DNA of 62,023 nucleotides. Source: a virus. This document shows, piece by piece, positions 10,347-57,698 of the stretch. A program made the position numbers and the translations under genes. Within the stretch, counting starts at the first letter, position 1, and each line of letters starts with the position of its first letter. The stretch lies in IMG/VR virus record IMGVR_UViG_3300001687_001193; one strand, 5' to 3'. The notes beneath the pieces are model-generated. The model was given only the letters and a program-made list of their open reading frames with translations, was not told the origin of the DNA and made no database searches.

Positions 10347-10564
10347 ACAACATATTCTTCAAAATAGGTGACATCGTGATACATAACACTCCGTTTTCTA
10401 CAAAATATGATCCAGGAGATGGCGTAGAAGGGGTTGTTATAGCTATGGTGTGGGGTGACATGCCTAAAGTTCGATGGAGCGACGGGAATGTAGAAACGTA
10501 TTGCCAGAGTGATTTAGAACTTATAGAAAGAAAGAGAGGCGACAGTGGCGAGGAAGAAAAGTAA
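10343..10564 (+). CDS. hypothetical small protein (KIGDIV-type N-terminus)
   Basis: N-terminal KIGDIVIH resembles the N-termini of the paralog set at 20940, 30076, 52328 and 58465. Confidence 0.35.
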   Translation: MNNIFFKIGDIVIHNTPFSTKYDPGDGVEGVVIAMVWGDMPKVRWSDGNVETYCQSDLELIERKRGDSGEEEK

Positions 10565-11564
10565 AAAGCCCGATTATTATGGACTGTTAGAGGTCTCACC
10601 TAGAGCCAGTAAAGAGGTAATAAAAGCCGCTTTTAAGGCCCTGATGGGCAAGTACCATCCAGACCACCACAAGACCGATAGAGTTGCTAAATCATTAAAC
10701 GAAGCGTATAGAGTCCTAATGAACAGCAAATCCCGTGCCGAATATGATGAGGAACGCGAGAATATAGAAGGGAAAATAATAGGCGACTATAGAGTACTCG
10801 AACTGATTGCGGAAGGCGGCTTTGGGAAAACCTATATTGGCGAGCAAATGTTAGTAGGAGAAAAGGTGTGTATTAAACATGCCTTGAGTGTTTCACCTCA
10901 AGACGAGGAAATATTGCTAGAAGAAACAAAGGCGGTGTGGGATCTAAGACATTACGCCATCCCAGCTATGAGGAATATCATTAAACTAGACGACGGAAGC
11001 TTAGCATTAATAATGAGCTATATACCTGGCCCGACATTGGAGCAGATGATAGAGCGAAACAAGAAGATCGATCCAGAGACTGTCTGTTGGATAACACAGC
11101 GAGTACTTAACGTCTTGATGTATTTACATTACCACGGTGTCATTCATGGAGATGTGAAGCCACAAAATATTATCATACAGCCCGAGTCACATATGGTAGT
11201 TCTCGTCGACTATGGCTTGTCTCTAATTAGACCTAAAAAGGACTCAAGTAGCAAAGGGTATACCCCATTCTTTGCGCCTCCAGAGCAGATTAAAGGATTT
11301 ACGCTGTTGCCGGGCTCCGATCTGTATTCTTTAGGTATGACGATGATTTACGCCCTGGGCGGCGATATTCAGAAAAAAGAGGTTCCATCGACGGTGCCTG
11401 CCCCAGTCTGTTCCTTCATAAAGAAGTTAATAGCATATAACGTTTTGAATAGACCCGATTGGGAGAAAGAGAATCTACTGGAAACGATACAAGAAGTCAG
11501 AATAGAAGCATTTGGTAGGGATTGTTCTTTTGGAAAAGGCATCCCTGGATTCACGAAAAAGTAA
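10545..11564 (+). CDS. J-domain (DnaJ-like) fused to a Ser/Thr protein-kinase-like domain
   Basis: GTG start after AGAGAGG. N-terminal YYGLLEV...KYHPDHH carries the HPD J-domain motif. Kinase motifs follow: AEGGFGKTY (Gly loop), VCIKH (VAIK), HGDVKPQNI (catalytic loop, HGD in place of HRD) and DYG (DFG). Confidence 0.65.
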   Translation: MARKKSKKPDYYGLLEVSPRASKEVIKAAFKALMGKYHPDHHKTDRVAKSLNEAYRVLMNSKSRAEYDEERENIEGKIIGDYRVLELIAEGGFGKTYIGEQMLVGEKVCIKHALSVSPQDEEILLEETKAVWDLRHYAIPAMRNIIKLDDGSLALIMSYIPGPTLEQMIERNKKIDPETVCWITQRVLNVLMYLHYHGVIHGDVKPQNIIIQPESHMVVLVDYGLSLIRPKKDSSSKGYTPFFAPPEQIKGFTLLPGSDLYSLGMTMIYALGGDIQKKEVPSTVPAPVCSFIKKLIAYNVLNRPDWEKENLLETIQEVRIEAFGRDCSFGKGIPGFTKK

Positions 11565-13681: not shown

Positions 13682-13713
13682 AATGCCATTGGAGTGTGCC
13701 CTCCAATGGCATT
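13682..13713 (+). other. perfect 13-bp inverted-repeat hairpin (AATGCCATTGGAG-TGTGCC-CTCCAATGGCATT) downstream of gene 12570-13550; possible terminator or operator
   Basis: Seen directly; followed by ttcatctc (weak T-run). Confidence 0.35.
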
Positions 13714-13732
13714 TTCATCTCGAGCAAACACT

Positions 13733-13936
13733 ATGGAAGACATTATAGAAATCACAGTACGCCAAGTTATGAATGGTAAAGAATACAAGCGCGTCTTAAA
13801 GGTAGAACCGTCTAGTTTTAATATACATATAACGAGAAATGTCTCGTACGAGTATAAGGACGAAATTTGGGGCAAGCCATCGAAGATTGTACCAGATCCA
13901 GACAGTTTCGTCCACATTACGGCAAGATTGAGGTAA
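13733..13936 (+). CDS. hypothetical protein
   Basis: Internal ATG of ORF 13652-13936, downstream of the hairpin. Confidence 0.3.
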   Translation: MEDIIEITVRQVMNGKEYKRVLKVEPSSFNIHITRNVSYEYKDEIWGKPSKIVPDPDSFVHITARLR

Positions 13937-14059
13937 AGAACGGGACGCTGCCAACAATTTCCATTTCAATCATGGACTCGGCAGAAGTAAACGTTTAGCC
14001 AAAGCTAGGGGTAGTGCCCTTAGGTGTATCTCGGAGCTGATAGAATATTTAGAGGAAGA

Positions 14060-14893
14060 ATGAAAGACTACGAAACAAAATTGAAAGAGAAACAAGATTA
14101 TGGGACAGGTGCTACCAGGGATGCTGCCAAAGGTAAAGGTCGTTTCGACCTTATCCCTGATCTTGCATTGGCGAGGCTGGCGGGAGTGTATGAAAGAGGG
14201 GCACTCAATCATGGCGCTAGAAATTGGGAGCAAGGCCTCCCCATTTCGAGGCTTATAGATAGTGCGACTAGACACCTAGTACAATACAAAATGAGTAAAT
14301 ATATGCCAGAATTGGACGATGAAGACCATTTGGCGCACTCTGCTTGGAATATACTTGCTATCATACATATGGAAGAAATGATAAAACGCGGTAGTCTACA
14401 AAAAGAGTTAGATGACTTGCCGCGTTATGAAAGGCTGCAACAAAAGAAAGAGTGTGTCGAACTAAACAGTCAAGATATAATTAAGATAGAAAACGAACTG
14501 GGTCCACTTAGCGTCGATATCCATACAGATCAAAGAACCGTAAAGATACATCATCCTGCATCCGGCCACAGCGTTACTAAGTTTCGAAGCCCCGATCAAA
14601 GACACAACTACTCTTGTGCTTTAAAAGAATTGAAAGACATCTTGGACCACACAGAAGAGACCCGGCGAGAGGAAAAGAAAAAAAAGATAGAGGAATACTT
14701 TGAAGAAAATGCGCCCGTGAAGCCGACTGACTTCGACTTTGGTTTTGGCGACGAAGAAGAGGAAAAATTTGTGCCACATGAAAAAGCAGCTAGATCTGTA
14801 TCGTTAGATCGCGTGGCCAAACGTGGAAGTAAACATGTATGTAAAGGCGGACGTGGGTGTGGTCGCCATGCAGAGAAATTAAGTAAAAAATAA
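14060..14893 (+). CDS. dATP/dGTP pyrophosphohydrolase-like N-terminal domain protein (putative) with Lys/Glu-rich C-terminus
   Basis: AGAGGAAG RBS; GRFDLIPDLALARLAGVYERGALNHGARNWEQG resembles the phage dATP/dGTP diphosphohydrolase N-domain signature (recalled from memory, not a searched match). Confidence 0.35.
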   Translation: MKDYETKLKEKQDYGTGATRDAAKGKGRFDLIPDLALARLAGVYERGALNHGARNWEQGLPISRLIDSATRHLVQYKMSKYMPELDDEDHLAHSAWNILAIIHMEEMIKRGSLQKELDDLPRYERLQQKKECVELNSQDIIKIENELGPLSVDIHTDQRTVKIHHPASGHSVTKFRSPDQRHNYSCALKELKDILDHTEETRREEKKKKIEEYFEENAPVKPTDFDFGFGDEEEEKFVPHEKAARSVSLDRVAKRGSKHVCKGGRGCGRHAEKLSKK

Positions 14894-15195: not shown

Positions 15196-16926
15196 ATGTC
15201 TAAGTTAAATATGAATAAAACCAAAACAATAGACGAGTCCGTGAGGAGTCGTATAGATGCCACGATTAATAAAGCTGGCGGATTAGCGTTTGAATTCGAG
15301 GATCCAGCAGAGTACTTGTTGGCGACCGTAGGGTCTGCTATGTTCGTAGAGCCACGATATTATGCAGACGAAGTTGACCTTGAGTCACTAAAAAAGGGCG
15401 AGTTTAATCATAAGGACTTGGACGAACAAGCTATAAAAATCATAGACGCGTGTATTTTGGTGGCCGAAGGTGAAAACCCAAGGGATCTGTTGGCTTTGGC
15501 GCATTGGGCTCGTACAGAGTTGCATATGCGCACAACCCCGCAAATTATGTTGGCGGTGGCTGCCAAGCATGTGAATACCAAGCCTTTTGTGCGAAAATAC
15601 GTACCACTAATTGCCCAACGTGCGGACGAAGTAAAACAAATTGTCGGAGCATACGAACATTTGTTCGGATGGAAGAAATTCCCTGCTTCTCTGAAGAAAG
15701 GGATTGCTGATCGCATGTCTACGATGAGCGAATACGAGTTGCTGAAATACAACACTAAGGGACACCCTTCTTTCGCCGATATACTGCGGTTTTGTGATCG
15801 CAGGCACAACTACCCGCTTTCAAAGCCGCTCAGAGAATATATTCTGAGGGGAGAAGTTATAGATCCAGAAGCCACTCCAATAATTGCTGCACGAAAGAGA
15901 CTTACGTCTTTGAGCGAATGGAACGATGATGTCCCATTTCTAGCTAAACAAGCTGGGGCGACATGGGAAGTTTTGGTATCTCAGTTTGGTAGCAAACAAG
16001 AAGTATGGGAAGCAGTGATTCCTTTGATGGGGTATATGGCTTTGCTGAGAAATATCGCCAACTTTTTGGACGCCGATATTTCTATGGAGAAAGTGCGTTT
16101 TGTAGTCGATAGGATCTCGGATCCAGAAAACGTCGCGAAATCAAAGCAACTACCGTTCAGATTTATGTCTGCTTACCGTATGCTCCATCCAGACCCAATG
16201 ACTTTCTATAGAACGCGCGATAGAAGGAATGTGGCTCGAAACAGAGATGCATGGAATAGGGCGAAGCTTCAAGCTTTTACAGAGGGCATAGAAGCTGCTA
16301 TGGATGCATCTATAGTGAATGTCCCGGTTCTTCCAGGTGTAACTGTTGTGGCAGCGGATAATTCAGGTAGCATGCAGGCACCCATCTCTGAGAAATCTGT
16401 TATGACTGTACGTGATGCCGCTAACGCACTGTGTGCTATAGTACATAAGCGCTGCGAAGAATCCTATGTATGTTCATTCGGCGATAATGCAATCTGGCCG
16501 CCTTTGACTAAACGCAATTCTGTATTGACAAATATGGAGAAAATTGCCACTCATGAAGCCAGACTTCGCGGACATTCCACTAATGCGTGGAAGGTTATAG
16601 AATATATGATAGATCATAATATAATTGCTGATAGAGTGATTGTATTATCTGATATGCAATGTTATGATTCTACTGGTTGGCGAGGCGGCGGCAATAGTGC
16701 TGCTGCACTTTTGGTAAAATATCGTAGAAACATCAAGAATGATTGTTACGCACATTTTTTCGATCTCCAAGGCTACGGCACAGCTCAGTCTAAGACTGAA
16801 TATGACAATATAGTTGGTGGCTTTAGTGAGAAAATTCTCAGCCAAATTCTGGTATTCGAGAATGCTGAGTCATCGGCCGGCGACAAGCCGCTTCCAACTA
16901 TGGAATATATTAGGGAAAACTTCTAA
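15196..16926 (+). CDS. Ro60-like RNA-binding protein (TROVE domain + C-terminal vWA)
   Basis: GAGAGAGGTG RBS. MALLRNIANF parallels the Ro60 TALLRNLGKM segment, and QLPFRFMSAYRML parallels Ro60 RIHPFHILVALETY. C-terminal VVAADNSGSM matches the Ro60 vWA MIDAS; length 576 aa. Confidence 0.6.
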   Translation: MSKLNMNKTKTIDESVRSRIDATINKAGGLAFEFEDPAEYLLATVGSAMFVEPRYYADEVDLESLKKGEFNHKDLDEQAIKIIDACILVAEGENPRDLLALAHWARTELHMRTTPQIMLAVAAKHVNTKPFVRKYVPLIAQRADEVKQIVGAYEHLFGWKKFPASLKKGIADRMSTMSEYELLKYNTKGHPSFADILRFCDRRHNYPLSKPLREYILRGEVIDPEATPIIAARKRLTSLSEWNDDVPFLAKQAGATWEVLVSQFGSKQEVWEAVIPLMGYMALLRNIANFLDADISMEKVRFVVDRISDPENVAKSKQLPFRFMSAYRMLHPDPMTFYRTRDRRNVARNRDAWNRAKLQAFTEGIEAAMDASIVNVPVLPGVTVVAADNSGSMQAPISEKSVMTVRDAANALCAIVHKRCEESYVCSFGDNAIWPPLTKRNSVLTNMEKIATHEARLRGHSTNAWKVIEYMIDHNIIADRVIVLSDMQCYDSTGWRGGGNSAAALLVKYRRNIKNDCYAHFFDLQGYGTAQSKTEYDNIVGGFSEKILSQILVFENAESSAGDKPLPTMEYIRENF

Positions 16927-25621: not shown

Positions 25622-26392
25622 ATGAGGGTATGGATTCTTGGAACTGGTGATGCCTTTTCCGAACAACGGTATAATGCGTCTTTTATAGTGCAAAGCAAAC
25701 ATGATAATCGTTTCCATGATCCTTCAGATGGATTTTTCAACTTGGCCGTAGAATGTCCACATCCCTACAGGAAAATACTTTTAGATTGCGAGATGAAAAG
25801 AGGCATTGCTAACGGCCCGAAACTAGAAGATATAGACCATTTCCTCATTAGTCATCTTCACGGAGATCATATGAATGGTCTAGAAGATGTGATTTTTTAT
25901 AAGCGGTTCGTGCAGGGTGTATATCCTCACGTTTACATGTCTCGTTGGGACTTGGATCAATTATGGAAGCATAGATTGAAATGTGCTATGGGCACCACTT
26001 ATGATGGCCAATGGCATCTCGATGTAGGGGAAGATTTTTTATATTATAAACATAGCTTGTCAGGTCCACAGTGCCATATAGGACCATTCGTTGTAGAAAC
26101 CAGAGTAACGCAGCATCATATCCCTGCAATTGCTATGTTGATTAAAGAAGGGGATAAATCTGTCGCTTTTTCATCTGATACTGTGTTCGACCCCTCTTTA
26201 ATTGATTGGATGAATCAAGCAGATCTTATTATACATGAAGCAACCGGTGGTCTTGGTCATACACGCTATGAAAGCTTAGTAACTTTATCGAAGAAAATTA
26301 AGGATAAGATGGTATTGATTCATTACCCTGACAGTTTTAATCGTGATACAGAGATCAGGAAGTTAAGAGAAGGCGAAGTACTTGAAGTATAA
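25622..26392 (+). CDS. metallo-beta-lactamase-fold hydrolase, RNase Z (tRNA 3'-processing) -like
   Basis: N-terminal ILGTGDAF, a LLDCE block, and ISHLHGDHMNGL (HxHxDH) match the short-form RNase Z / ElaC pattern. Confidence 0.5.
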   Translation: MRVWILGTGDAFSEQRYNASFIVQSKHDNRFHDPSDGFFNLAVECPHPYRKILLDCEMKRGIANGPKLEDIDHFLISHLHGDHMNGLEDVIFYKRFVQGVYPHVYMSRWDLDQLWKHRLKCAMGTTYDGQWHLDVGEDFLYYKHSLSGPQCHIGPFVVETRVTQHHIPAIAMLIKEGDKSVAFSSDTVFDPSLIDWMNQADLIIHEATGGLGHTRYESLVTLSKKIKDKMVLIHYPDSFNRDTEIRKLREGEVLEV

Positions 26393-28217: not shown

Positions 28218-28356
28218 AAGAGTTGCGCGACGGAGATTTTGCCGATGATTGGAAAAATCCAGCAACTATAAAGAGAAGACTAAATAAAGAAATTAAAGAG
28301 TTGGAAAACTCTTGATATAGAGCTTGTTCAATTTTAAGAACAGGATGGAGGATACG

Positions 28357-29559
28357 ATGGCTGAGAAATTCGTAAGAGACAAGCCCCATGTCAATGTGGG
28401 GACGATTGGTCATATTGACCATGGAAAAACTACCCTGACAGCTGCCATCACGAAAGTTTTGGCACTGGAAGGTGGTGCCAAGTTTACATCGTTTGACGAG
28501 ATCGACAAGGCACCAGAAGAGAAAGAGCGTGGCATTACGATTGCTACGGCACATGTTGAGTATACGACAGAGAAAAGGCACTACGCACATGTTGACTGCC
28601 CAGGACACGCCGACTATATTAAGAATATGATTACAGGAGCGGCCCAGATGGACGGAGCAATTCTGGTTGTAAGTGCTCCAGATGGTCCAATGCCGCAGAC
28701 AAGAGAACACATCCTGTTGGCAAGACAGGTAGATGTACCAGCAATGGTAGTTTTCCTCAATAAAGTAGATATGGTAGACGAGGAAGACGTAGAGTTGATA
28801 GATTTGGTGGAATTAGAATTACAGGAGCTACTTACCAAGTATCAGTTTCCTGGGGAAGAAATTCCGATTATACGCGGATCTGCTTTACAGGCATTGGAAT
28901 CTAATAGCGACGACCTTGGTGCCCCTGAGTATCAGTGCATTAGGGAATTGGTGCGGGCGGTTGACGATTATATCCCAGAGCCAGAGCGAGATACAGACAA
29001 GGATTTTCTCCTTCCTGTCGAGAACGTATATACCATCGGTGGTAGAGGGACGGTCGTTACCGGAAAGGTAGAGCGTGGCAAGATCAAGGTGAACGATCCT
29101 GTAGAAATAGTGGGGATTAGAGAAACCAATCGCACTGTATGTACCGGTGTACAAATGTTCTATAAGGATATGGATGAAGGAATAGCGGGCGATAGTATCG
29201 GTGCTCTGCTGCGTGGAGTAAAAAGAGACGAGGTAGAGAGAGGAATGGTGTTGGCCGCTCCGGGCTCTATAACGCCTCATAGGAAATTTAAGGCAGAAGT
29301 TTACGTCTTGAGGAAAGAAGAAGGCGGGAGACACACTCCGTTCTTCAGCGGTTACAGGCCACAGTTCTATTGCAGGACCACTGATGTGATGGGTGAGATC
29401 AAACTCGACGAAGGCATCGAGATGGTAATGCCAGGCGACAATGTTAATGTCAACGTAGAACTGCACGTACCTATAGCCGCAGAAAAAGGATTGCATTTTG
29501 CGGTGAGAGAAGGAGGTAAAACCGTAGGTGCAGGAATGGTAACGGAGATTATCGAATGA
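28357..29559 (+). CDS. tuf: translation elongation factor Tu (EF-Tu) homolog
   Basis: GGAGGA RBS 4 nt before ATG at 28357. [32 protein letters not shown] is near-identical to bacterial EF-Tu, including the G1-G4 GTPase motifs (DCPGH, NKVD) and the C-terminal beta-barrel domains. Confidence 0.9.
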
Positions 29560-38005: not shown

Positions 38006-38078
38006 GCGGGCGTAGTATAACGGTTTAGTACGTTACATTGCCGGTGTAGAGGTGGGAGTTCAATTCTCCCCGCCCGCA
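38006..38078 (+). tRNA. tRNA-Gly(GCC)
   Basis: Acceptor GCGGGCG/CGCCCGC, anticodon stem TTACA/TGTAG, loop TTGCCGG, T-arm GGGAG-TTCAATT-CTCCC. Confidence 0.65.
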
Positions 38079-40311: not shown

Positions 40312-40446
40312 TTGGTGTCATAGATTGACAAGATGCGAGGACTTAGTTGAATGGCCCCCTACAGGCGGTGAATTCATGATTATCTGTATGAGGTGTTGTC
40401 AAAGATTGAAAATAAGGCCCAATAAGGCATTAGGAGGCAATGAACG

Positions 40447-40770
40447 ATGAGCGACAGCAACTGTCCGGATTGTGGCGGGTATCTGTACTGGCACAAAACG
40501 GACTGCCCGAGAACAACAGAGAAACTTCGCGCCCGCATCGCCGACCTAGAGGCCGAGGTGGAGCGGCTGCGAAGCTACATCAGGGGCGTACAAGAGGCGC
40601 AGGCAGTGTCTGAATCGCTGGCCAGTGAGCGCAGCATCGAGGTGGAGCGGCTGCGGGGGTTGCTGCGGAAGGCGTTGAAGGCGTTTGAGGGGTGTATCTG
40701 CGGTGACGAAACGCGAAAGTGCGCAGACATTGAGCGCCGCATCGAAGCCGCGCTGAAGGAGGGGCAGTGA
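40447..40770 (+). CDS. hypothetical protein (CPDCGGYLYWH family, GC-rich copy)
   Basis: N-terminus paralogous to ORF 32706; about 60 percent GC versus about 42 percent background; internal 17-bp direct repeat GAGGTGGAGCGGCTGCG. Confidence 0.45.
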   Translation: MSDSNCPDCGGYLYWHKTDCPRTTEKLRARIADLEAEVERLRSYIRGVQEAQAVSESLASERSIEVERLRGLLRKALKAFEGCICGDETRKCADIERRIEAALKEGQ

Positions 40771-40817
40771 ACCACATCACCCAGCTCACTTTCCTTGCTG
40801 GGTTTACGCGTCTCTAG

Positions 40818-40892
40818 GCCCCAAAAGTGTTAATGGTTGCACGCTAGTTTCGTAATCTAGAAGACTTCGCGGTTCGATTCCGAGTTGGGGCT
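40818..40892 (+). other. tRNA-like element with apparent 9-nt anticodon loop
   Basis: Perfect acceptor GCCCCAA/TTGGGGC, T-arm CGCGG-TTCGATT-CCGAG, anticodon-region stem CTAG/CTAG with loop TTTCGTAAT. Confidence 0.3.
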
Positions 40893-41140
40893 CGCTTCCT
40901 TGCCCGCTGAGGGTTGAAGAGGTAGGGGACCAGAAGGTCTATACTAGTTATGACTGGAAGTCAGTTGCGTTAGCCGGTACCCCCGCAGAGGCGGGGCGGA
41001 AACGGGGCAAGCCGGCCCGATGGCTGGTGGGCATTTCGGTGTACAACGGATGCTCGGCCTAGGCGAGAGGTAGTTGCCACAACGGGAGACAGGGTTCGGC
41101 ACACTCCCACACCGCATGGTGCCGTCATACGCCCCTGAAG
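40893..41140. ncRNA. GC-rich structured noncoding region (candidate ncRNA) between two tRNA-like elements
   Basis: No + ORF; local GC about 60 percent; hairpins CCCCGC-AGAG-GCGGGG, TGACT-GGA-AGTCA, GGGAG...CTCCC. Confidence 0.25.
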
Positions 41141-42429: not shown

Positions 42430-45201
42430 ATGTTGGACAAGATACGCAAAGCCATAGAAAATAGGCTCAATAAGAAATATATCTCCAACCCAACATCTGA
42501 AGAAAACCTTTGGTCTTACATTGAAAAGACAGAGCGCGAGCTAGAAATCGCCGAAGGCGAACTTAGGGCTCTTAGAGAAAAAATAAAAGCGTTAGCCGAT
42601 CGAACTGGATTCCGTGGCATATTTCTAGAGTTTGTGGGGCCTCGCAGAGCGTTGGTGGCAATAGGTCCGCTTAAGGAAGAAGTGCTTATCACCCCGAATG
42701 TAGAAGAATCGCGGCTAAAAAAGGGCTGCGAAGTCTTAATTACCCTCGACGATAATGGTAAAATGTTGTCTGAGGATCGTGGACGCAGCGCATATGGCGG
42801 CAGAGTAGGCAAAATACATATGGTGTTAGACTCGGAACGAGTATTGATCGAGGAAGCTGGTCATATCGCTATGTTTATTCTAGCCGAAGGAGTGGAATGT
42901 CAAACTGGCGACGAGGTACGATACGATCCAATTTCTCAAGTAGTATTCGAAGTGATTGGAGAAAAGAGAGAATCGGCCTTCGCTTTGGCGGAACAACCTA
43001 AAACTACTTTCGACGATGTAAAAGGCTTGTGCGAAGAAAAAGAGTTTCTCAAAGAAAAGATAATATATCCTATAATTTACAGCGATAAGTTTGAAAAATA
43101 TGGGATTAAGCCCGCGAGAGGGATCTTGTTTCATGGTCCTCCTGGTTGTGGTAAAGCCCAACCCCTAGATAGTTTGGTGTTGACTCCCAACGGTTATGTA
43201 AAAATGGGAGACATTTTGCCTGGAAGTTTTGTCTCTACTCCAGACGGCAATAGTGCCAAAGTTCTGGAAACGTTTCCTCAAGGTGAAATAGAAATTTATA
43301 AAGTAAATTTTAGCGATGGAACATCAGCGGAGTGTTGTGAAAATCATTTATGGAAAATACGAAATAAATATGACATCGCAATGAAGCGACACGGCAGAGT
43401 AGTAAAACTTAAAGATATTATGTATAAGGTAAAACTTCCTTCAGGACGCAGGAAATATTCCATTCCGATGACAAAGCCGGTTAAATTTGTTAGACACAGC
43501 GTTCCACTTGATCCATATTTACTCGGGTGTTTACTTGGTGACGGTTCTTTTAGTAGCAAAAAGGTGGGTTTTACTACAATGGATCGTGAGATTATTGACA
43601 CTCTAACTCCGATTATACGTCGCCTGGGTTGTAAATTTACGAGACATGATAGATATAATTACGATATCGTAGAAATATTAAAACAGAGCGGCCCTGTTGG
43701 CCGCGCAGTAGAATCTATCACTGATAGCGGTGAAGTTATTACTTACGATTGTATCTCGTCTGCGGTGGCAGCTGGGTTTAGTAAACACGGAATATATAAA
43801 ACTTGTTCTGGGCGACAGCACACGCATGGGGGCAGAAGGTGGAGATTTTTACAGAAATTGGCTGCAGCACACCACCCAATAAAAAATGCGTTGCACCAAC
43901 TTTGCCTGTTTGGGACAAGATCTTCCGAGAAATTTGTGCCTCACGTCTATAAGATTAACTCTAGACAAATTAGACTTTCTCTATTAAGAGGATTAATGGA
44001 TACGGATGGGTGTGTCGACAAAAAGGGCATGACTGTATTTTTCTCCAGTACATCATATCAGTTAATAATGGATGTTAAATTTCTCGTGGAATCACTTGGT
44101 GGGAAAGCTAAAGTGGGTCGCCCACGCAAATCTAAGTATCGAAAGAACACTGGCGAAGTCGTAGAAACCGGCAATGTATCCCATAATCTTTTCATTTCCA
44201 TGCCACCCGACATAAACCCATTTCTGGTATCCCGAAAAAGGCTGCGCGTATGCCCCAAAACCAAGTATCCACCGACGAGATATATAGAAGAAATATGTTA
44301 TGTGGGCAAAAAGAAAGCGCAGTGCATATTAATAGACCATCCAGATCATTTATATATAACAAATGATTTCATTGTTACACATAACACATATCTAGGAGAA
44401 GCGGTATTCAACGAGTCCATGAAAATCAGGGGTGGAAAAACTGCCGGCAAGGGTTTTTTCCTGGTGAATGGACCAGAAATATTATCAAAATGGGCCGGCA
44501 ACACTGAACTAGCCATAAGAGAGGTGTTCGAGGCGGCACGACGAGAAGCTAATACCTCCGGATTTCCATCGGTTATATTCTGGGACGAAGTAGACAGCGT
44601 GGCTGGGAGGAGAAAAGATGTTGATACATTTACTCCAGAAAAGACTGTTGTTCCCACATTGTTGTCCGAAATACACGGAATTAACAACACGAACAATGTT
44701 ATTTTTATCGGAGCGACCAATATGCCTAATTTAATTGACCCAGCCTTAATGCGCCCTGGGAGACTTGGAGACGCGATTATAGAAATCCCGAGGCCCGAAA
44801 GTAATGCCGCAATGGACATTTTAGATAAGGAGTTCAACCGTGAGAGTCTCCCAGCAGCCCTTACAGCTCTTTTAAAAGAAGGCCTGACTCAACGGATAGT
44901 TGACCATTGTTATGCGAACACCAAACCTCTTGCATATGCGAGCAGGAAAAGTGGTGCTAAGCAACCACTAATGAGACAGGAATTGGTGAGCGGTGCACTA
45001 TTCGCCCAGATTGGGGAGGATTTGGTGCGTAGAGCCTGCATGGCAGAGATAGATGAATCTAGGCCACCCACAATTGAAGATGCTATAGACATGGTAGATA
45101 ACATATTATTGACACAGATTGGAGTGTTGGATGCTGGCGTGAAAAGTGGTTTTACTATCGATACTTCTGACTACGTTGTCGATGTATCATTAGATGGGTA
45201 A
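42430..45201 (+). CDS. AAA+ ATPase of the proteasome-activating (PAN/ARC/Rpt/Cdc48-like) type, interrupted by an intein in the Walker A motif
   Basis: N-terminal coiled coil. Walker A GPPGCGK|...|T is split by the insert, then Walker B VIFWDEVD and the SRH ATNMPNLIDPALMRPGRLGDAIIEIPRP follow. The extein is about 513 aa. Confidence 0.75.
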   Translation: MLDKIRKAIENRLNKKYISNPTSEENLWSYIEKTERELEIAEGELRALREKIKALADRTGFRGIFLEFVGPRRALVAIGPLKEEVLITPNVEESRLKKGCEVLITLDDNGKMLSEDRGRSAYGGRVGKIHMVLDSERVLIEEAGHIAMFILAEGVECQTGDEVRYDPISQVVFEVIGEKRESAFALAEQPKTTFDDVKGLCEEKEFLKEKIIYPIIYSDKFEKYGIKPARGILFHGPPGCGKAQPLDSLVLTPNGYVKMGDILPGSFVSTPDGNSAKVLETFPQGEIEIYKVNFSDGTSAECCENHLWKIRNKYDIAMKRHGRVVKLKDIMYKVKLPSGRRKYSIPMTKPVKFVRHSVPLDPYLLGCLLGDGSFSSKKVGFTTMDREIIDTLTPIIRRLGCKFTRHDRYNYDIVEILKQSGPVGRAVESITDSGEVITYDCISSAVAAGFSKHGIYKTCSGRQHTHGGRRWRFLQKLAAAHHPIKNALHQLCLFGTRSSEKFVPHVYKINSRQIRLSLLRGLMDTDGCVDKKGMTVFFSSTSYQLIMDVKFLVESLGGKAKVGRPRKSKYRKNTGEVVETGNVSHNLFISMPPDINPFLVSRKRLRVCPKTKYPPTRYIEEICYVGKKKAQCILIDHPDHLYITNDFIVTHNTYLGEAVFNESMKIRGGKTAGKGFFLVNGPEILSKWAGNTELAIREVFEAARREANTSGFPSVIFWDEVDSVAGRRKDVDTFTPEKTVVPTLLSEIHGINNTNNVIFIGATNMPNLIDPALMRPGRLGDAIIEIPRPESNAAMDILDKEFNRESLPAALTALLKEGLTQRIVDHCYANTKPLAYASRKSGAKQPLMRQELVSGALFAQIGEDLVRRACMAEIDESRPPTIEDAIDMVDNILLTQIGVLDAGVKSGFTIDTSDYVVDVSLDG
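43156..44385 (+). other. intein (410 aa) with LAGLIDADG homing-endonuclease domain, inserted between K242 and T653 of the P-loop
   Basis: Begins AQPLDSLVLTPNGYVKMGDI (block-A-like), contains LLGCLLGDGSF and LLRGLMDTDGCV (two LAGLIDADG motifs), ends IVTHN followed by Thr +1. Joining the exteins restores GPPGCGKT. Confidence 0.7.
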
Positions 45202-53755: not shown

Positions 53756-54847
53756 ATGGAGATTGGGCTATCTTTTGATGATGTGTTGTTGAAGCCGCGT
53801 AGGCTCACCTTTTTGAGTAGGTTTAATGGAGAAATCGATTTATCTGTTCAATTATTACCGAATGTTAGACTGAAATATCCCCTTGTATCTGCCAATATGG
53901 ACACAGTTACCGAATACAAATTAGCCAATAAAATCAATGAGTTGGGTGGGCTGGGCATAATCCATAGATTTATGGACATAGAACGACATAAAGAGGAGTT
54001 ATTCTCTATTAAAGACACTAGGATTCTTTGTATAGGTGTTGGGGATCACAGCAGGGAGAGGCTCGTTCGTATAAATGACAGACACGATCGGGACAATGCA
54101 TATATACAAGGAATCTTAGTTGACGTGGCACATGGCCATTCTAATGCTGTTCTTGAGCAGATCAAGGAGGTTAAAGAGAAATTTCCAAGCAAGCCTATAA
54201 TAGCCGGAAATGTCGCTACGTATGAGGGTGCCATGGATTTACTTTCCGCTGGAGCAGACTGCATCAAGGCGGGAGTAGGACCTGGCAGCCTTTGTACGAC
54301 AAGAATTAAAACTGGTTGTGGCATCCCACAGCTAACGGCTATAGTGGAAGTAAGGAAGGCTGTCGAAGATTATGTGGCACGCTGCCTACTGCCTCGCGGT
54401 CATCGGGATGGACCACGGGAGCGTCCGTGGAAACCTACTATCATATCCGACGGCGGGATCAAGAACAGTGGCGATGGTATTAAAGCAATTGCCGCTGGTG
54501 CTGACGCAGTTATGGTCGGAAATTTATTCGCTGGCACAGATGAAAGCCCTGGCAGAGTCGTTAGTTTCCCAGGGCACGGAAAAATGAAGGAATATAGAGG
54601 TATGGCTAGTCTTGAGGCGCAAGAAAGTTGGAAAGGCAGAGCCACGTCTATCGAAGGAGAAATGACATATGTACCGTATAAAGGCTCTCTGGAAAGCGTA
54701 TTCGACGACTTTGTTTCCGGTATGTTGTCAGGAATGAGTTATCAAGATGCAAAGAATCTTTCGCAACTAAGAGAGAATGCAGAATTCATACGCATAACTC
54801 CCTCTAGTCTACAGGAAAGTTTACCGCATGGGGTGGTGCTAAAATGA
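53756..54847 (+). CDS. IMP dehydrogenase / GMP reductase family protein (GMP-reductase-like, no CBS domains)
   Basis: FDDVLLKP start, [18 protein letters not shown], catalytic loop [11 protein letters not shown]; carries a GC-rich insertion of about 20 aa ([20 protein letters not shown]) before the IISDGG strand. Confidence 0.7.
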
Positions 54848-55092
54848 ACCTAAAAGAATTGAAATATGTAATAGATTCTGCGCTAGACAAATGTCCAGGA
54901 GCAGCACAATGGGATATTATTGTATCACGAGATGGAACTATGAGGGAAGAACTCTTTGAGGTAGATGGAGTAGAAAGCTGTGTATATGAACCAGATCCTA
55001 CTTTAATAGGCAATTATTTTAGGGTAAGAATTGCAGAAAGCGAAGAAAAAGAAAACGCGCTGTGTTTTTATGTTTTGCCAAGCTCCCGCTAG
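54844..55092 (+). CDS. hypothetical protein
   Basis: 82-aa ORF; ATGA overlap. Confidence 0.35.
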   Translation: MNLKELKYVIDSALDKCPGAAQWDIIVSRDGTMREELFEVDGVESCVYEPDPTLIGNYFRVRIAESEEKENALCFYVLPSSR

Positions 55093-55153
55093 TGGATTTC
55101 TAGACTCGGGACTCCTAATCCTGATGTTCCCGGTTCGATTCCGGGCGGGAGTT
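55082..55153 (+). tRNA. tRNA-Arg(CCT) (probable)
   Basis: Acceptor GCTCCCG/CGGGAGT (1 GU), anticodon stem CGGGA/TCCTG (1 GU), loop CTCCTAA, T-arm CCCGG-TTCGATT-CCGGG. Confidence 0.45.
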
Positions 55154-56633: not shown

Positions 56634-57698
56634 GTGTACATGCGTGAAGAATCCATTAAGTTTTTGAAAAATTTGATCGAGGCTCCAAGCCCATCTGGCT
56701 TTGAGAGCCCTGCTTCTAAGATTTGGAGGGAATATTTAAAACCACACGTCAGTGAAGTGCGCGGAGACGTATATGGCAATTCTATAGCCGTTGTAAACCC
56801 GGAAGGATCTCCAAAAATTATGCTCTGCGGCCACATTGATGAAGTAGGATTCATGGTTAACTATATCAACGACGAAGGTTTTTTGTATATGTCAGCCATA
56901 GGTGGCGTCGATCCTCTTATAGCTCTGGGAAGAGATGTAATTATCCATAACAAAAATGGCCCGGTGCGCGGAGTAACGGGCAGGATCCCCACGCATTTGC
57001 AAAATGACGAAGAAGAAGAAGAGATAAAGTTACATAAAATATACGTGGATATCGGGGCGCTAGATAGAGAAAATGCGTTTGAAATGGTATCCGTCGGAGA
57101 TCCTGTAACCTTCGACGTCGGGTTTCGTGAGCTGTCTAACGGTAGGATTGTGGCTAGGGGCCTTGATGATCGGATGGGCGCGTGGTGTGTTGCCGAAGCG
57201 TTAATGGAGCTGGTCAGATCCGATAAGCTATCCGCCGCCGTTTACGGCGTAGCTACTGTGCAGGAGGAGATTGGGACTAGTGGAGCCATCATCTCCTCTT
57301 TTGCGCTAGGTCCAAAGGCTGCCGTTGCCATAGATGCGACGCACGCCACGGATATTCCTGACGTTACTAAGGAAAAGACCGGAGACGTACAGCTAGGTGG
57401 GGGTCCAACTATCTCTGTCGGGTCTTTAATGCATAGAAAAGTTAGGGAGATGTTAAAGGAAGCGGCAGAGAACAACAGGATTCCCAACCAAATCGTGACA
57501 GCTCCGTGTTGGTCTGGGACAGACGCTGATGTAATATCGGTAAGTCGTAGCGGCATCCCATCAGGACTAGTATCGGTGCCAAATAGATATATGCATACGC
57601 CAGTAGAAATGATTCAACTGGACGATTTAGAAAATACTGTCAAACTGTTGGTCGCTTGGTGTGAGGCCATGGACGACGATATAGATTTCAATATTTGA
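56634..57698 (+). CDS. M42-family metallo-aminopeptidase (FrvX/CelM-like)
   Basis: LCGHIDEVGFMV (the HxDExGF metal-binding motif), GRIPTH and distal D/E ligands fit peptidase family M42. Confidence 0.65.
   Translation: MYMREESIKFLKNLIEAPSPSGFESPASKIWREYLKPHVSEVRGDVYGNSIAVVNPEGSPKIMLCGHIDEVGFMVNYINDEGFLYMSAIGGVDPLIALGRDVIIHNKNGPVRGVTGRIPTHLQNDEEEEEIKLHKIYVDIGALDRENAFEMVSVGDPVTFDVGFRELSNGRIVARGLDDRMGAWCVAEALMELVRSDKLSAAVYGVATVQEEIGTSGAIISSFALGPKAAVAIDATHATDIPDVTKEKTGDVQLGGGPTISVGSLMHRKVREMLKEAAENNRIPNQIVTAPCWSGTDADVISVSRSGIPSGLVSVPNRYMHTPVEMIQLDDLENTVKLLVAWCEAMDDDIDFNI

Follow-up and report, generated by a model that had tools for sequence, protein, structure and literature searches.

The DNA analyzed here, IMG/VR virus record IMGVR_UViG_3300001687_001193 (62,023 nucleotides over its whole length, in the following referred to as the window), carries on its plus strand a single uninterrupted reading frame of 923 amino acids (positions 42430-45201), in which an ATPase of the AAA+ type is interrupted by an insert of 410 residues. 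This insert comprises residues 243-652 (nucleotides 43156-44385) and is located between the lysine and the threonine of the Walker A motif, GPPGCGK/T, where the slash, here and below, denotes the point of insertion. At the 5' junction the translation reads ...GILFHGPPGCGK/AQPLDSLVLTPNG (or, given to another length, ...GILFHGPPGCGK/AQPLDSLVLTPNGYVKMGDI...), and at the 3' junction it reads ...HLYITNDFIVTHN/TYLGEAVFNE..., the insert ending in DFIVTHN. We consider it highly probable that the insert is a mobile class 3 intein with a LAGLIDADG homing endonuclease, and that the protein whose Walker A loop it interrupts is an AAA+ unfoldase of the Mpa/ARC-like type from what is probably a huge phage. 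The features of the gene are collected in Table 1.

Excision of residues 243-652 in silico restores GPPGCGKT, with GPPGCGK-TYLGEAVFNESMK as the predicted ligated junction, and it changes the manner in which the protein is recognized by the Pfam AAA profile: The spliced sequence gives one contiguous match (residues 232-371, profile positions 1-125, E 3.4e-31), whereas the precursor gives a truncated match from residue 653 onward (profile positions 12-125, E 9.8e-25). By calculation, the precursor has a mass of 103.2 kDa, the spliced protein one of 56.9 kDa, and the intein one of 46.3 kDa. No shift of the boundary is possible in either direction because the lysine preceding the insert differs from the asparagine that ends it and the alanine that starts it differs from the threonine that follows. 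An alternative start of the intein, for example at Cys240, was rejected, since the sequence is GCGKT in homologs without the intein and the P-loop would not survive a boundary placed elsewhere.

The original prediction, which had been made from the sequence of the window, had placed an intein at precisely these residues, and the translation together with an alignment of 12 sequences bears it out in its particulars: The insert splits GK/T, its removal gives back the P-loop and renders the AAA match contiguous, its first residue is Ala243 with a boundary that is unambiguous against intein-free homologs, it ends in HN with threonine to follow (THN/T), and the Walker B element given as FWDEVD is found as IFWDE (F717-E720), which is invariant in the alignment. 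Besides Walker B, the C-extein contains the pore loop KWAG and the second region of homology, and along the exteins Walker A, Walker B, the pore loop, and the arginine-finger region are conserved. After splicing, Thr653 is also the Walker A threonine that coordinates Mg2+. The domain layout of the N-extein was inferred from an AlphaFold2 (AF2) model of P0001, an intein-free homolog of 74% identity.

Homologs with and without the insert were obtained by searching metagenomes with the spliced sequence, which yielded about 50 close homologs at E 1e-84 or better, most of them 505-564 amino acids long. The family was retrieved from this source because the spliced extein, when searched by tblastn in cultivated phages, gave only partial matches to the AAA domain (coverage of at most 59%); megablast of window positions 30000-54000 against 50,697 phage records gave no match, and there is therefore no close cultivated relative from which annotation could be borrowed. 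The closest homolog, P0001 (514 amino acids, 74% identity, 100% query coverage), is free of the intein, as are P0002 and P0003, which together with it form the three closest homologs (73-75% identity), while some more distant homologs (43-55%) carry one. Five homologs (P0016, P0017, P0026, P0045, and P0047) are 838-878 amino acids long and contain LAGLIDADG Pfam domains. In the 12-sequence alignment, these five have an insert at the same K/T site that starts with GK/A[QG][PS]L and ends with FIVTHN/T, and six short homologs, P0001 among them, show one gap that extends precisely from after K242 to before T653. The short homologs read GPPGCGKT[LFM]..., with the exception of P0049 (GKN) and P0051 (GPPGTGKT). 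The GPPGCGKN of the intein-free P0049 is in itself an unusual P-loop, which would also lack the +1 nucleophile for an incoming intein.

The contig that encodes P0001, L005, has at least seven neighbor genes in common with the window, and these flank the ATPase gene to its left as well as to its right; in the window the corresponding reading frames start at 38021, 42042, 45205, 45330, 46882, 48660, and 49595. Its empty site reads ...GGTTGTGGAAAG/ACTCTACTAGGT... or, in another rendering, ...CATGGGCCGCCAGGTTGTGGAAAG/ACTCTACTAGGTGAAGCC.... The question raised with the original prediction, whether the additional 410 residues are a normal domain of intein-free relatives, is answered by these homologs in favor of an intein. 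Two of the five alleles have a decayed endonuclease with intact splicing blocks: P0016 has lost most of the first endonuclease half-domain and reads LMDSNG, and P0026 reads LMDSGG. Such a scattered occurrence agrees with the usual cycle of homing, in which an intein is gained, decays, and is lost. Among the alleles, identities are 48-56% for the intein and 43-55% for the extein, a comparison from which no clear sign of horizontal transfer in recent times emerged, and a tblastn search of the window for a second intein of the same family found none. On L006, the 115.6-kb contig of P0017, a free-standing GIY-YIG/NUMOD3 homing-endonuclease-like gene (13708-14178) lies about 5 kb downstream of the intein-containing ATPase gene; related phages thus carry several kinds of mobile endonuclease.

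Class 3 signature, fold, and endonuclease

Class 3 inteins are defined by a non-nucleophilic residue 1, by a Trp-Cys-Thr (WCT) triplet at positions B:12, F:4, and G:5, and by a serine or threonine at position +1, with the cysteine of block F serving as the obligate initiating nucleophile (PMC2807308, PMC5050341). The insert is an in-frame, removable segment with a HINT fold and with blocks A, B, F, and G, the last of which ends in HN followed by threonine. Within these blocks, residue 1 is alanine and hence not Cys, Ser, or Thr, Trp66, Cys390, and Thr408 (intein numbering) form the WCT triplet, and the +1 residue is Thr653. In an alignment of 43 sequences (A2), the A-Q-P start is conserved to at least 90%, and His at B:10, Trp at B:12, Cys at F:4, and the terminal THN are invariant. 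Among PDB sequences, the intein is matched best by Msm DnaBi1 (6BS8, E 2.2e-07), itself of class 3, whose H65 and W67 align with His64 and Trp66, whose catalytic C118 aligns with Cys390, and whose T137-H138-N139 align with Thr408-His409-Asn410. In Msm DnaBi1, the mutations C118A and N139A inactivate splicing (PMC6195587). By its position, Cys390 is the predicted initiating nucleophile of the intein in the window.

On account of the alanine start, the original prediction had left the choice between a class 2/3-like mechanism and a dead intein. The WCT triplet and the alignment with 6BS8 settle these alternatives for class 3, so that this part of the claim stands, while class 2 is excluded and degeneracy is unlikely; judged by the sequence, the alanine marks a class 3 mechanism and not degeneracy. 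Some observations weigh against the assignment as a mobile class 3 intein. Three out of 37 inteins with a WCT triplet have an N-terminal Ser or Cys as well (PMC2807308), and the triplet alone is therefore no proof of mechanism; against this it can be held that residue 1 is alanine in the present case. The residue at B:7 is Cys61, where characterized examples have Ser or Thr. Finally, the G+C content of the intein (0.402) is just slightly below that of the exteins (0.434 and 0.454), as is its G+C content at third codon positions (0.349 versus 0.405 and 0.417), which is no strong sign of recent acquisition.

With its neighbor C60, Cys61 forms a pair of adjacent cysteines (B:6-B:7, window positions 43333-43338), in which B:7 is Cys or Ser and not the usual Thr. 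C60 is conserved to at least 90% in the intein family and is also found in the gp41-1 intein.

For the intein, extended by five residues at either end, an AF2 model computed from 43 aligned sequences reaches a mean predicted local distance difference test (pLDDT) score of 89.1 and a predicted template modeling (pTM) score of 0.83. When this model was compared to the PDB with Foldseek, the best whole-model matches were the PI-SceI, TliVMA, and PhoVMA inteins (E 1e-15 to 3e-11, template modeling score about 0.6), and the matches, with E values from 1e-15 down to the 1e-4 range, include the gp41-1, DnaB, and Prp8 inteins. Among the mini-intein fold matches, 6BS8 has the highest identity (28-30%) and the lowest root-mean-square deviation (1.6-2.7 Å).

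Both LAGLIDADG motifs that had been predicted in the insert are present and have kept their acidic residue, and the Pfam match is above threshold: LAGLIDADG_3 (PF14528) covers two stretches (E 3e-16, 59.9 bits versus a cut-off of 22.5), and Hom_end (PF05204) scores 25.8 bits versus a cut-off of 21.1. The motif elements G-D-G and D..G are invariant in A2. On this basis we assign the domain as a double-motif, intein-borne LAGLIDADG homing endonuclease, which is predicted to be active. Between its halves lies an extra module of about 68 amino acids that is possibly a NUMOD1-like DNA-binding helix-turn-helix. This assignment is suggested by a sub-threshold match to PF22083 (I-HmuI_NUMOD-like; E 0.044, 13.8 bits versus a cut-off of 27), and the module is modeled with lower confidence (pLDDT 50-80 at residues 181-250 of the modeled sequence). 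It is lacking in the five allelic inteins; inteins of similar extra length occur in five of the 120 relatives listed (P0121, P0122, P0143, P0170, and P0210), and the four of these for which a Pfam match or a source name is on record are proteins of the PhoH/YlaK type.

Related inteins and the host protein

Inteins of this kind are widespread in the P-loops of phage proteins. A tblastn search of cultivated phages with the complete reading frame matched 845 records through the intein part, with terminase large subunits, SNF2 or 'DarB-like' helicases, and 300 mycobacteriophage records among them. The sequences from Clostridium phage phi8074-B1, Vibrio phage 1.161.O, PhiPA3 gp233, and the TerL of Acinetobacter phage TaPaz were retrieved and translated, and all of them follow the scheme GK/AQPL...C-I-x-[VI]...VTHN/T; the record of TaPaz TerL is annotated as intein-containing. 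At metagenome scale, the intein matched 2406 proteins at E 1e-5 or better, and the best 120 of the 2406 are mostly PhoH, with some RecA, RuvB, and AAA proteins. In a table of 124 relatives, drawn up from alignments to the junction regions, none of the 124 lacks His B:10, Trp B:12, Cys F:4, or THN, position +1 is occupied by Thr in 121 and by Ser in 3, and the K(-1)/A(1) junction is seen in 108 of the 124, the alignment having stopped short of the junction in 12. Host proteins with the same Walker A site are PhoH, RecA, RuvB, AAA proteins, terminases, and SNF2 proteins of phages. The Lys/Thr site has been termed the 'classic' P-loop intein insertion (PMC5050341), and nucleotide-binding sites have been put forward in a 2025 preprint as a path by which inteins move from one host protein to another. 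Consequently, the original prediction had overrated the rarity of the element: GK/A...THN/T inteins are abundant in phages, and the intein MchDnaB1 has the same GK/Ala1 junction. The global identity of the whole intein to metagenomic inteins in PhoH, RecA, RuvB, and AAA proteins is 42-49%, which makes these inteins of other host proteins appear only slightly more distant than the alleles, and recent transfer is not demonstrable from such values. A search of the literature, two intein surveys included, for inteins in proteasome-type ATPases found no report within the literature covered.

The comparison with known systems begins with the two solved class 3 inteins that likewise follow a Walker A lysine, Msm DnaBi1 (6BS8) and M. 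chimaera DnaB-1 (MchDnaB1; 6RIX/6RIY), the latter of which has 'SVGK preceding Ala1', like the Ala1 found here. In these DnaB mini-inteins, the block B H-x-W, the block F cysteine with ...P-[DE]-H-L-Y, and THN align residue for residue with the present intein, and their sequence identity to it (22-30%) is the highest of the mini-intein fold matches. They differ in size (139-146 amino acids without an endonuclease versus 410 with an endonuclease and the extra module), in their host, which is a bacterial replicative helicase and not a phage unfoldase, and, for DnaBi1, in the +1 residue, which is Ser (PMC6195587) in place of Thr. The class 3 prototype MP-Be DnaB of Mycobacteriophage Bethlehem is phage-borne as well and shares with the present intein the LAGLIDADG endonuclease, the triplet (W67/C320/T339), HN, and Thr+1 (PMC2807308), whereas its Pro1 follows Gln-1, its host is a DnaB-like helicase, and its B:7 residue is Ser62, as opposed to Ala1 after Lys-1 and Cys61 in the window. 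The junction is shared by the phage P-loop inteins of the GK/AQPL...VTHN/T type (TaPaz TerL, Vibrio phage 1.161.O gp150, PhiPA3 gp233 SNF2, mycobacteriophage TerL1-a at the 'classic' site, and the metagenomic PhoH, RecA, and RuvB inteins), which have the AQP[LM] start, the WCT triplet and THN, and the type of endonuclease in common with it. Those of cultivated phages are 28-35% identical to the present intein by tblastn; none of the listed P-loop inteins outside the ATPase family sits in an Mpa/ARC-like ATPase, and only a minority share the extra module. PI-SceI and the Thermococcus/Pyrococcus VMA inteins combine HINT and LAGLIDADG domains in the same architecture and also reside in a P-loop ATPase, but they belong to class 1 (the TliVMA and PhoVMA structures that were matched carry the mutation C1A) and are only 10-14% identical to the present intein.

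With respect to the host protein, which had been described as PAN/ARC-like, the architecture could be corroborated by modeling. The model of the intein-free P0001 (pLDDT 80.7) consists of a helix (residues 2-57), two beta barrels (62-119 and 126-178), and one AAA module, and its best structural matches are chains of M. tuberculosis Mpa (E 1.6e-34, 28-32% identity, about 450-485 aligned columns), with 26S Rpt subunits well behind (about 1e-23 and weaker). In the PDB sequence search, Cdc48/p97 D2 was best over the AAA module alone, and the match to Mpa spans residues 84-470. The N-terminal coiled coil, two OB barrels, and single AAA module are those of the Mpa/ARC proteins of Actinobacteria (PDB 5KWA, 7PX9, 7LJF). 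Membership in the Mpa equivalog itself is not supported: The best NCBIfam match, TIGR03689 (proteasome ATPase, pup_AAA), reaches 231.1 bits versus a cut-off of 504.75, with the intein-containing precursor scored, and the C-terminus reads ...DYVVDVSLDG (family consensus ...DVSLxx), without an HbYX/GQYL-type docking motif. In Mpa, GQYL is the proteasome-docking motif. Mpa/ARC-like is thus right for the architecture of the protein, which further differs from Mpa/ARC in that it is encoded by probable huge phages. The tail (45139-45198, ...GVLDAGVKSGFT.D.S.YV.DVSL..) is strongly conserved in the ATPase family and is modeled poorly (pLDDT below 50 at residues 490-502 of P0001). No genes for a 20S proteasome, Pup, Dop, or PafA were found among the approximately 39 reading frames scanned in the window, which is part of a genome only.

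Proposed splicing pathway and its alternatives

For the intein in the window, we propose by homology a mechanism in which the 103-kDa precursor would initially be made with a split P-loop and would not bind ATP properly. The thiol of Cys390 (F:4), activated by the block B environment of His64 and Trp66, would attack the Lys242-Ala243 bond, which would result in a thioester-linked block F branched intermediate. In the next step, the N-extein would move to the hydroxyl group of Thr653 (+1), whereby the branched intermediate at block G, the standard one, would arise. Cyclization of Asn652, assisted by His651, would then free the 46-kDa intein, and an O-to-N acyl shift would finally produce the 57-kDa ATPase with GPPGCGKT intact. 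During co-infection, the endonuclease would cut intein-free alleles at the sequence that codes for the P-loop, for example at the empty site of L005, and repair from the intein-carrying allele would copy the intein in, which corresponds to homing. From the intact splicing residues, the preservation of both acidic residues, and the full-length conservation of the exteins we therefore infer that splicing takes place and that a functional 57-kDa ATPase is formed; the order of the chemical steps is proposed by homology.

A class 2 intein of the KlbA type would start with alanine just as the present one does. KlbA inteins have a cysteine at +1, however, compared to which the threonine found here is a poorer nucleophile, and the closest solved relative belongs to class 3. 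Moreover, W66, C390, and T408 are all present and invariant in the intein family, whereas class 2 by definition requires the absence of the WCT triplet (PMC2807308). Because the triplet is present and the +1 residue is threonine, we exclude class 2 and hold such an assignment to be very improbable. It is somewhat less improbable, yet still quite unlikely, that the insert is a degenerate remnant which no longer splices, so that the 103-kDa protein would be inactive or would function differently with its P-loop broken. The endonuclease decay in the alleles P0016 and P0026 does indicate that inteins in this gene family are ageing, but this decay is confined to the endonuclease and never reaches the splicing blocks, and every splicing residue is intact both here and in the 124 tabulated relatives. 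Furthermore, the exteins are 74% identical over their full length to an intein-free homolog, with Walker A and B, the pore loop, and the arginine fingers conserved, a pattern that would not be expected unless the ATPase were still produced. In view of its nuclease-like domain and its possible helix-turn-helix, the insert could also be conceived as an ordinary, lineage-specific domain that is never removed, such as a DNA-binding or nuclease accessory. To this reading we give next to no credence, given that the insert is precisely absent from the closest homologs, interrupts the invariant GK/T of Walker A, has the intein blocks A, B, F, and G as well as the HINT fold, and has related inserts (42-49% identity) in the same position of Walker A in further families of P-loop NTPases, among them PhoH, RecA, RuvB, and TerL.

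Within the reading of the insert as a splicing class 3 intein, there is also an unlikely variant, in which the intein would serve as a conditional switch, with the extra NUMOD1-like module in parallel aiding the spread of the intein family. The model for the switch is Msm DnaBi1, a class 3 intein whose splicing is controlled under oxidative stress: By analogy, C60, next to C61, might form a reversible disulfide or a zinc site with the catalytic C390, and the unfoldase might be kept inactive, in precursor form, until the infected cell offers reducing or metal conditions under which splicing can proceed. The extra module may confer wider targeting on the endonuclease and help the intein family to move between unrelated P-loop genes.

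Genomic surroundings and meaning of the finding

Relatives of the ATPase are encoded on IMG/VR viral contigs of 301,683 and 340,392 bp, and the source of the window is likely a huge phage; virion genes were not found in the window. ARAGORN detects 24 tRNA genes, all on the plus strand, within 2084-57996, and Rfam adds three tRNA candidates at 5295-5430, 8108-8182, and 55083-55152, the first of which (136 nucleotides versus a model of 71 positions) may contain an intron. The remaining cargo is unusual for a phage and comprises, among others, a full-length EF-Tu homolog and a Ro60/TROVE protein (Table 1). Upstream of the ATPase gene, at 40440-41130, lies a GC-rich island (0.57-0.62 versus a window mean of 0.43), whose composition suggests a foreign origin. 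It contains two tRNA-Thr genes with a 237-nucleotide spacer and, from inspection of the sequence by eye, a small Cys-rich coiled-coil reading frame at approximately 40448-40771. A search of 40440-41130 for structured RNA with Rfam found tRNA only; the spacer matches no family, and shuffled sequence folds just as well (z = 0.01).

Table 1. Coordinates in the window of the intein-containing ATPase gene, its parts, and other notable genes
Feature	Position	Strand	Description and evidence
N-extein, residues 1-242	42430-43155	+	Coiled-coil helix, two OB-type beta barrels, start of AAA; ends in GPPGCGK
Intein, 410 amino acids	43156-44385	+	HINT domain split by double-motif LAGLIDADG endonuclease; homologs, Pfam, AF2/Foldseek
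Block A, AQPLDSLVLTPNG	43156-43194	+	Residue 1 is Ala243; no N-terminal nucleophile
Block B, GTSAECCENHLW	43318-43353	+	His64 is B:10 (43345-43347), Trp66 is B:12 (43351-43353), the W of the WCT triplet
LAGLIDADG motif 1, LLGCLLGDG	43519-43545	+	Residues 364-372 of the reading frame; acidic residue kept
Extra module, about 68 amino acids	43672-43875	+	Intein residues 173-240, between the endonuclease halves; ...ITDSGEVITYDCISSAVAAGFSKHGIYKTCSGRQHTHGGRRWRF...
LAGLIDADG motif 2, LLRGLMDTDG	43981-44010	+	Residues 518-527 of the reading frame; acidic residue kept
Block F, AQCILIDHPDHLYI	44317-44358	+	Cys390 is F:4 (C632 of the reading frame, 44323-44325)
Block G, NDFIVTHN	44362-44385	+	Thr408 is G:5, His409 is G:6, Asn410 is G:7 (T650, H651, N652 of the reading frame)
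Thr653	44386-44388	+	+1 splice nucleophile; translation, 12-sequence alignment
C-extein, residues 653-923 and stop	44386-45201	+	Rest of AAA module, helical lid, conserved tail ...VDVSLDG
Ham1 NTP pyrophosphatase	379-996		
DnaJ-protein kinase fusion	10545-11564		
Ro60/TROVE protein	15196-16926		
Metallo-beta-lactamase	25622-26392		Sub-threshold Apyc1 (anti-Pycsar) match
EF-Tu homolog	28324-29559		Full-length, all three EF-Tu domains; another P-loop gene of the window
IMPDH/GMP reductase-family protein	53756-54847		
M42 (TET-type) aminopeptidase	56634-57698		

Taken by itself, the finding is real but ordinary: The alanine start is a textbook mark of class 3, the Walker A site is a typical one, and such inteins are abundant in phages. 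Knowledge of intein chemistry is left unchanged, as the alanine start is what class 3 predicts. What is new is modest and consists in the host family, Mpa/ARC-like unfoldases of probable huge phages, which had not been listed before, in the matched pair of a filled and an empty allele (the window and L005), and in the extra, possibly NUMOD1-like module. The allele pair is usable for a homing assay. For annotation, the finding is of value in that gene callers give a 923-amino acid 'AAA ATPase / LAGLIDADG' fusion, whereas the functional product is most likely an unfoldase of 513 amino acids. An AAA+ unfolding machine thereby joins the helicases, terminases, PhoH, RecA, and RuvB as a host of P-loop class 3 phage inteins. 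Perhaps more interesting than the intein is the host family itself, Mpa-like unfoldases that lack the docking tail and are encoded on viral contigs with a length of at least some 300 kb.

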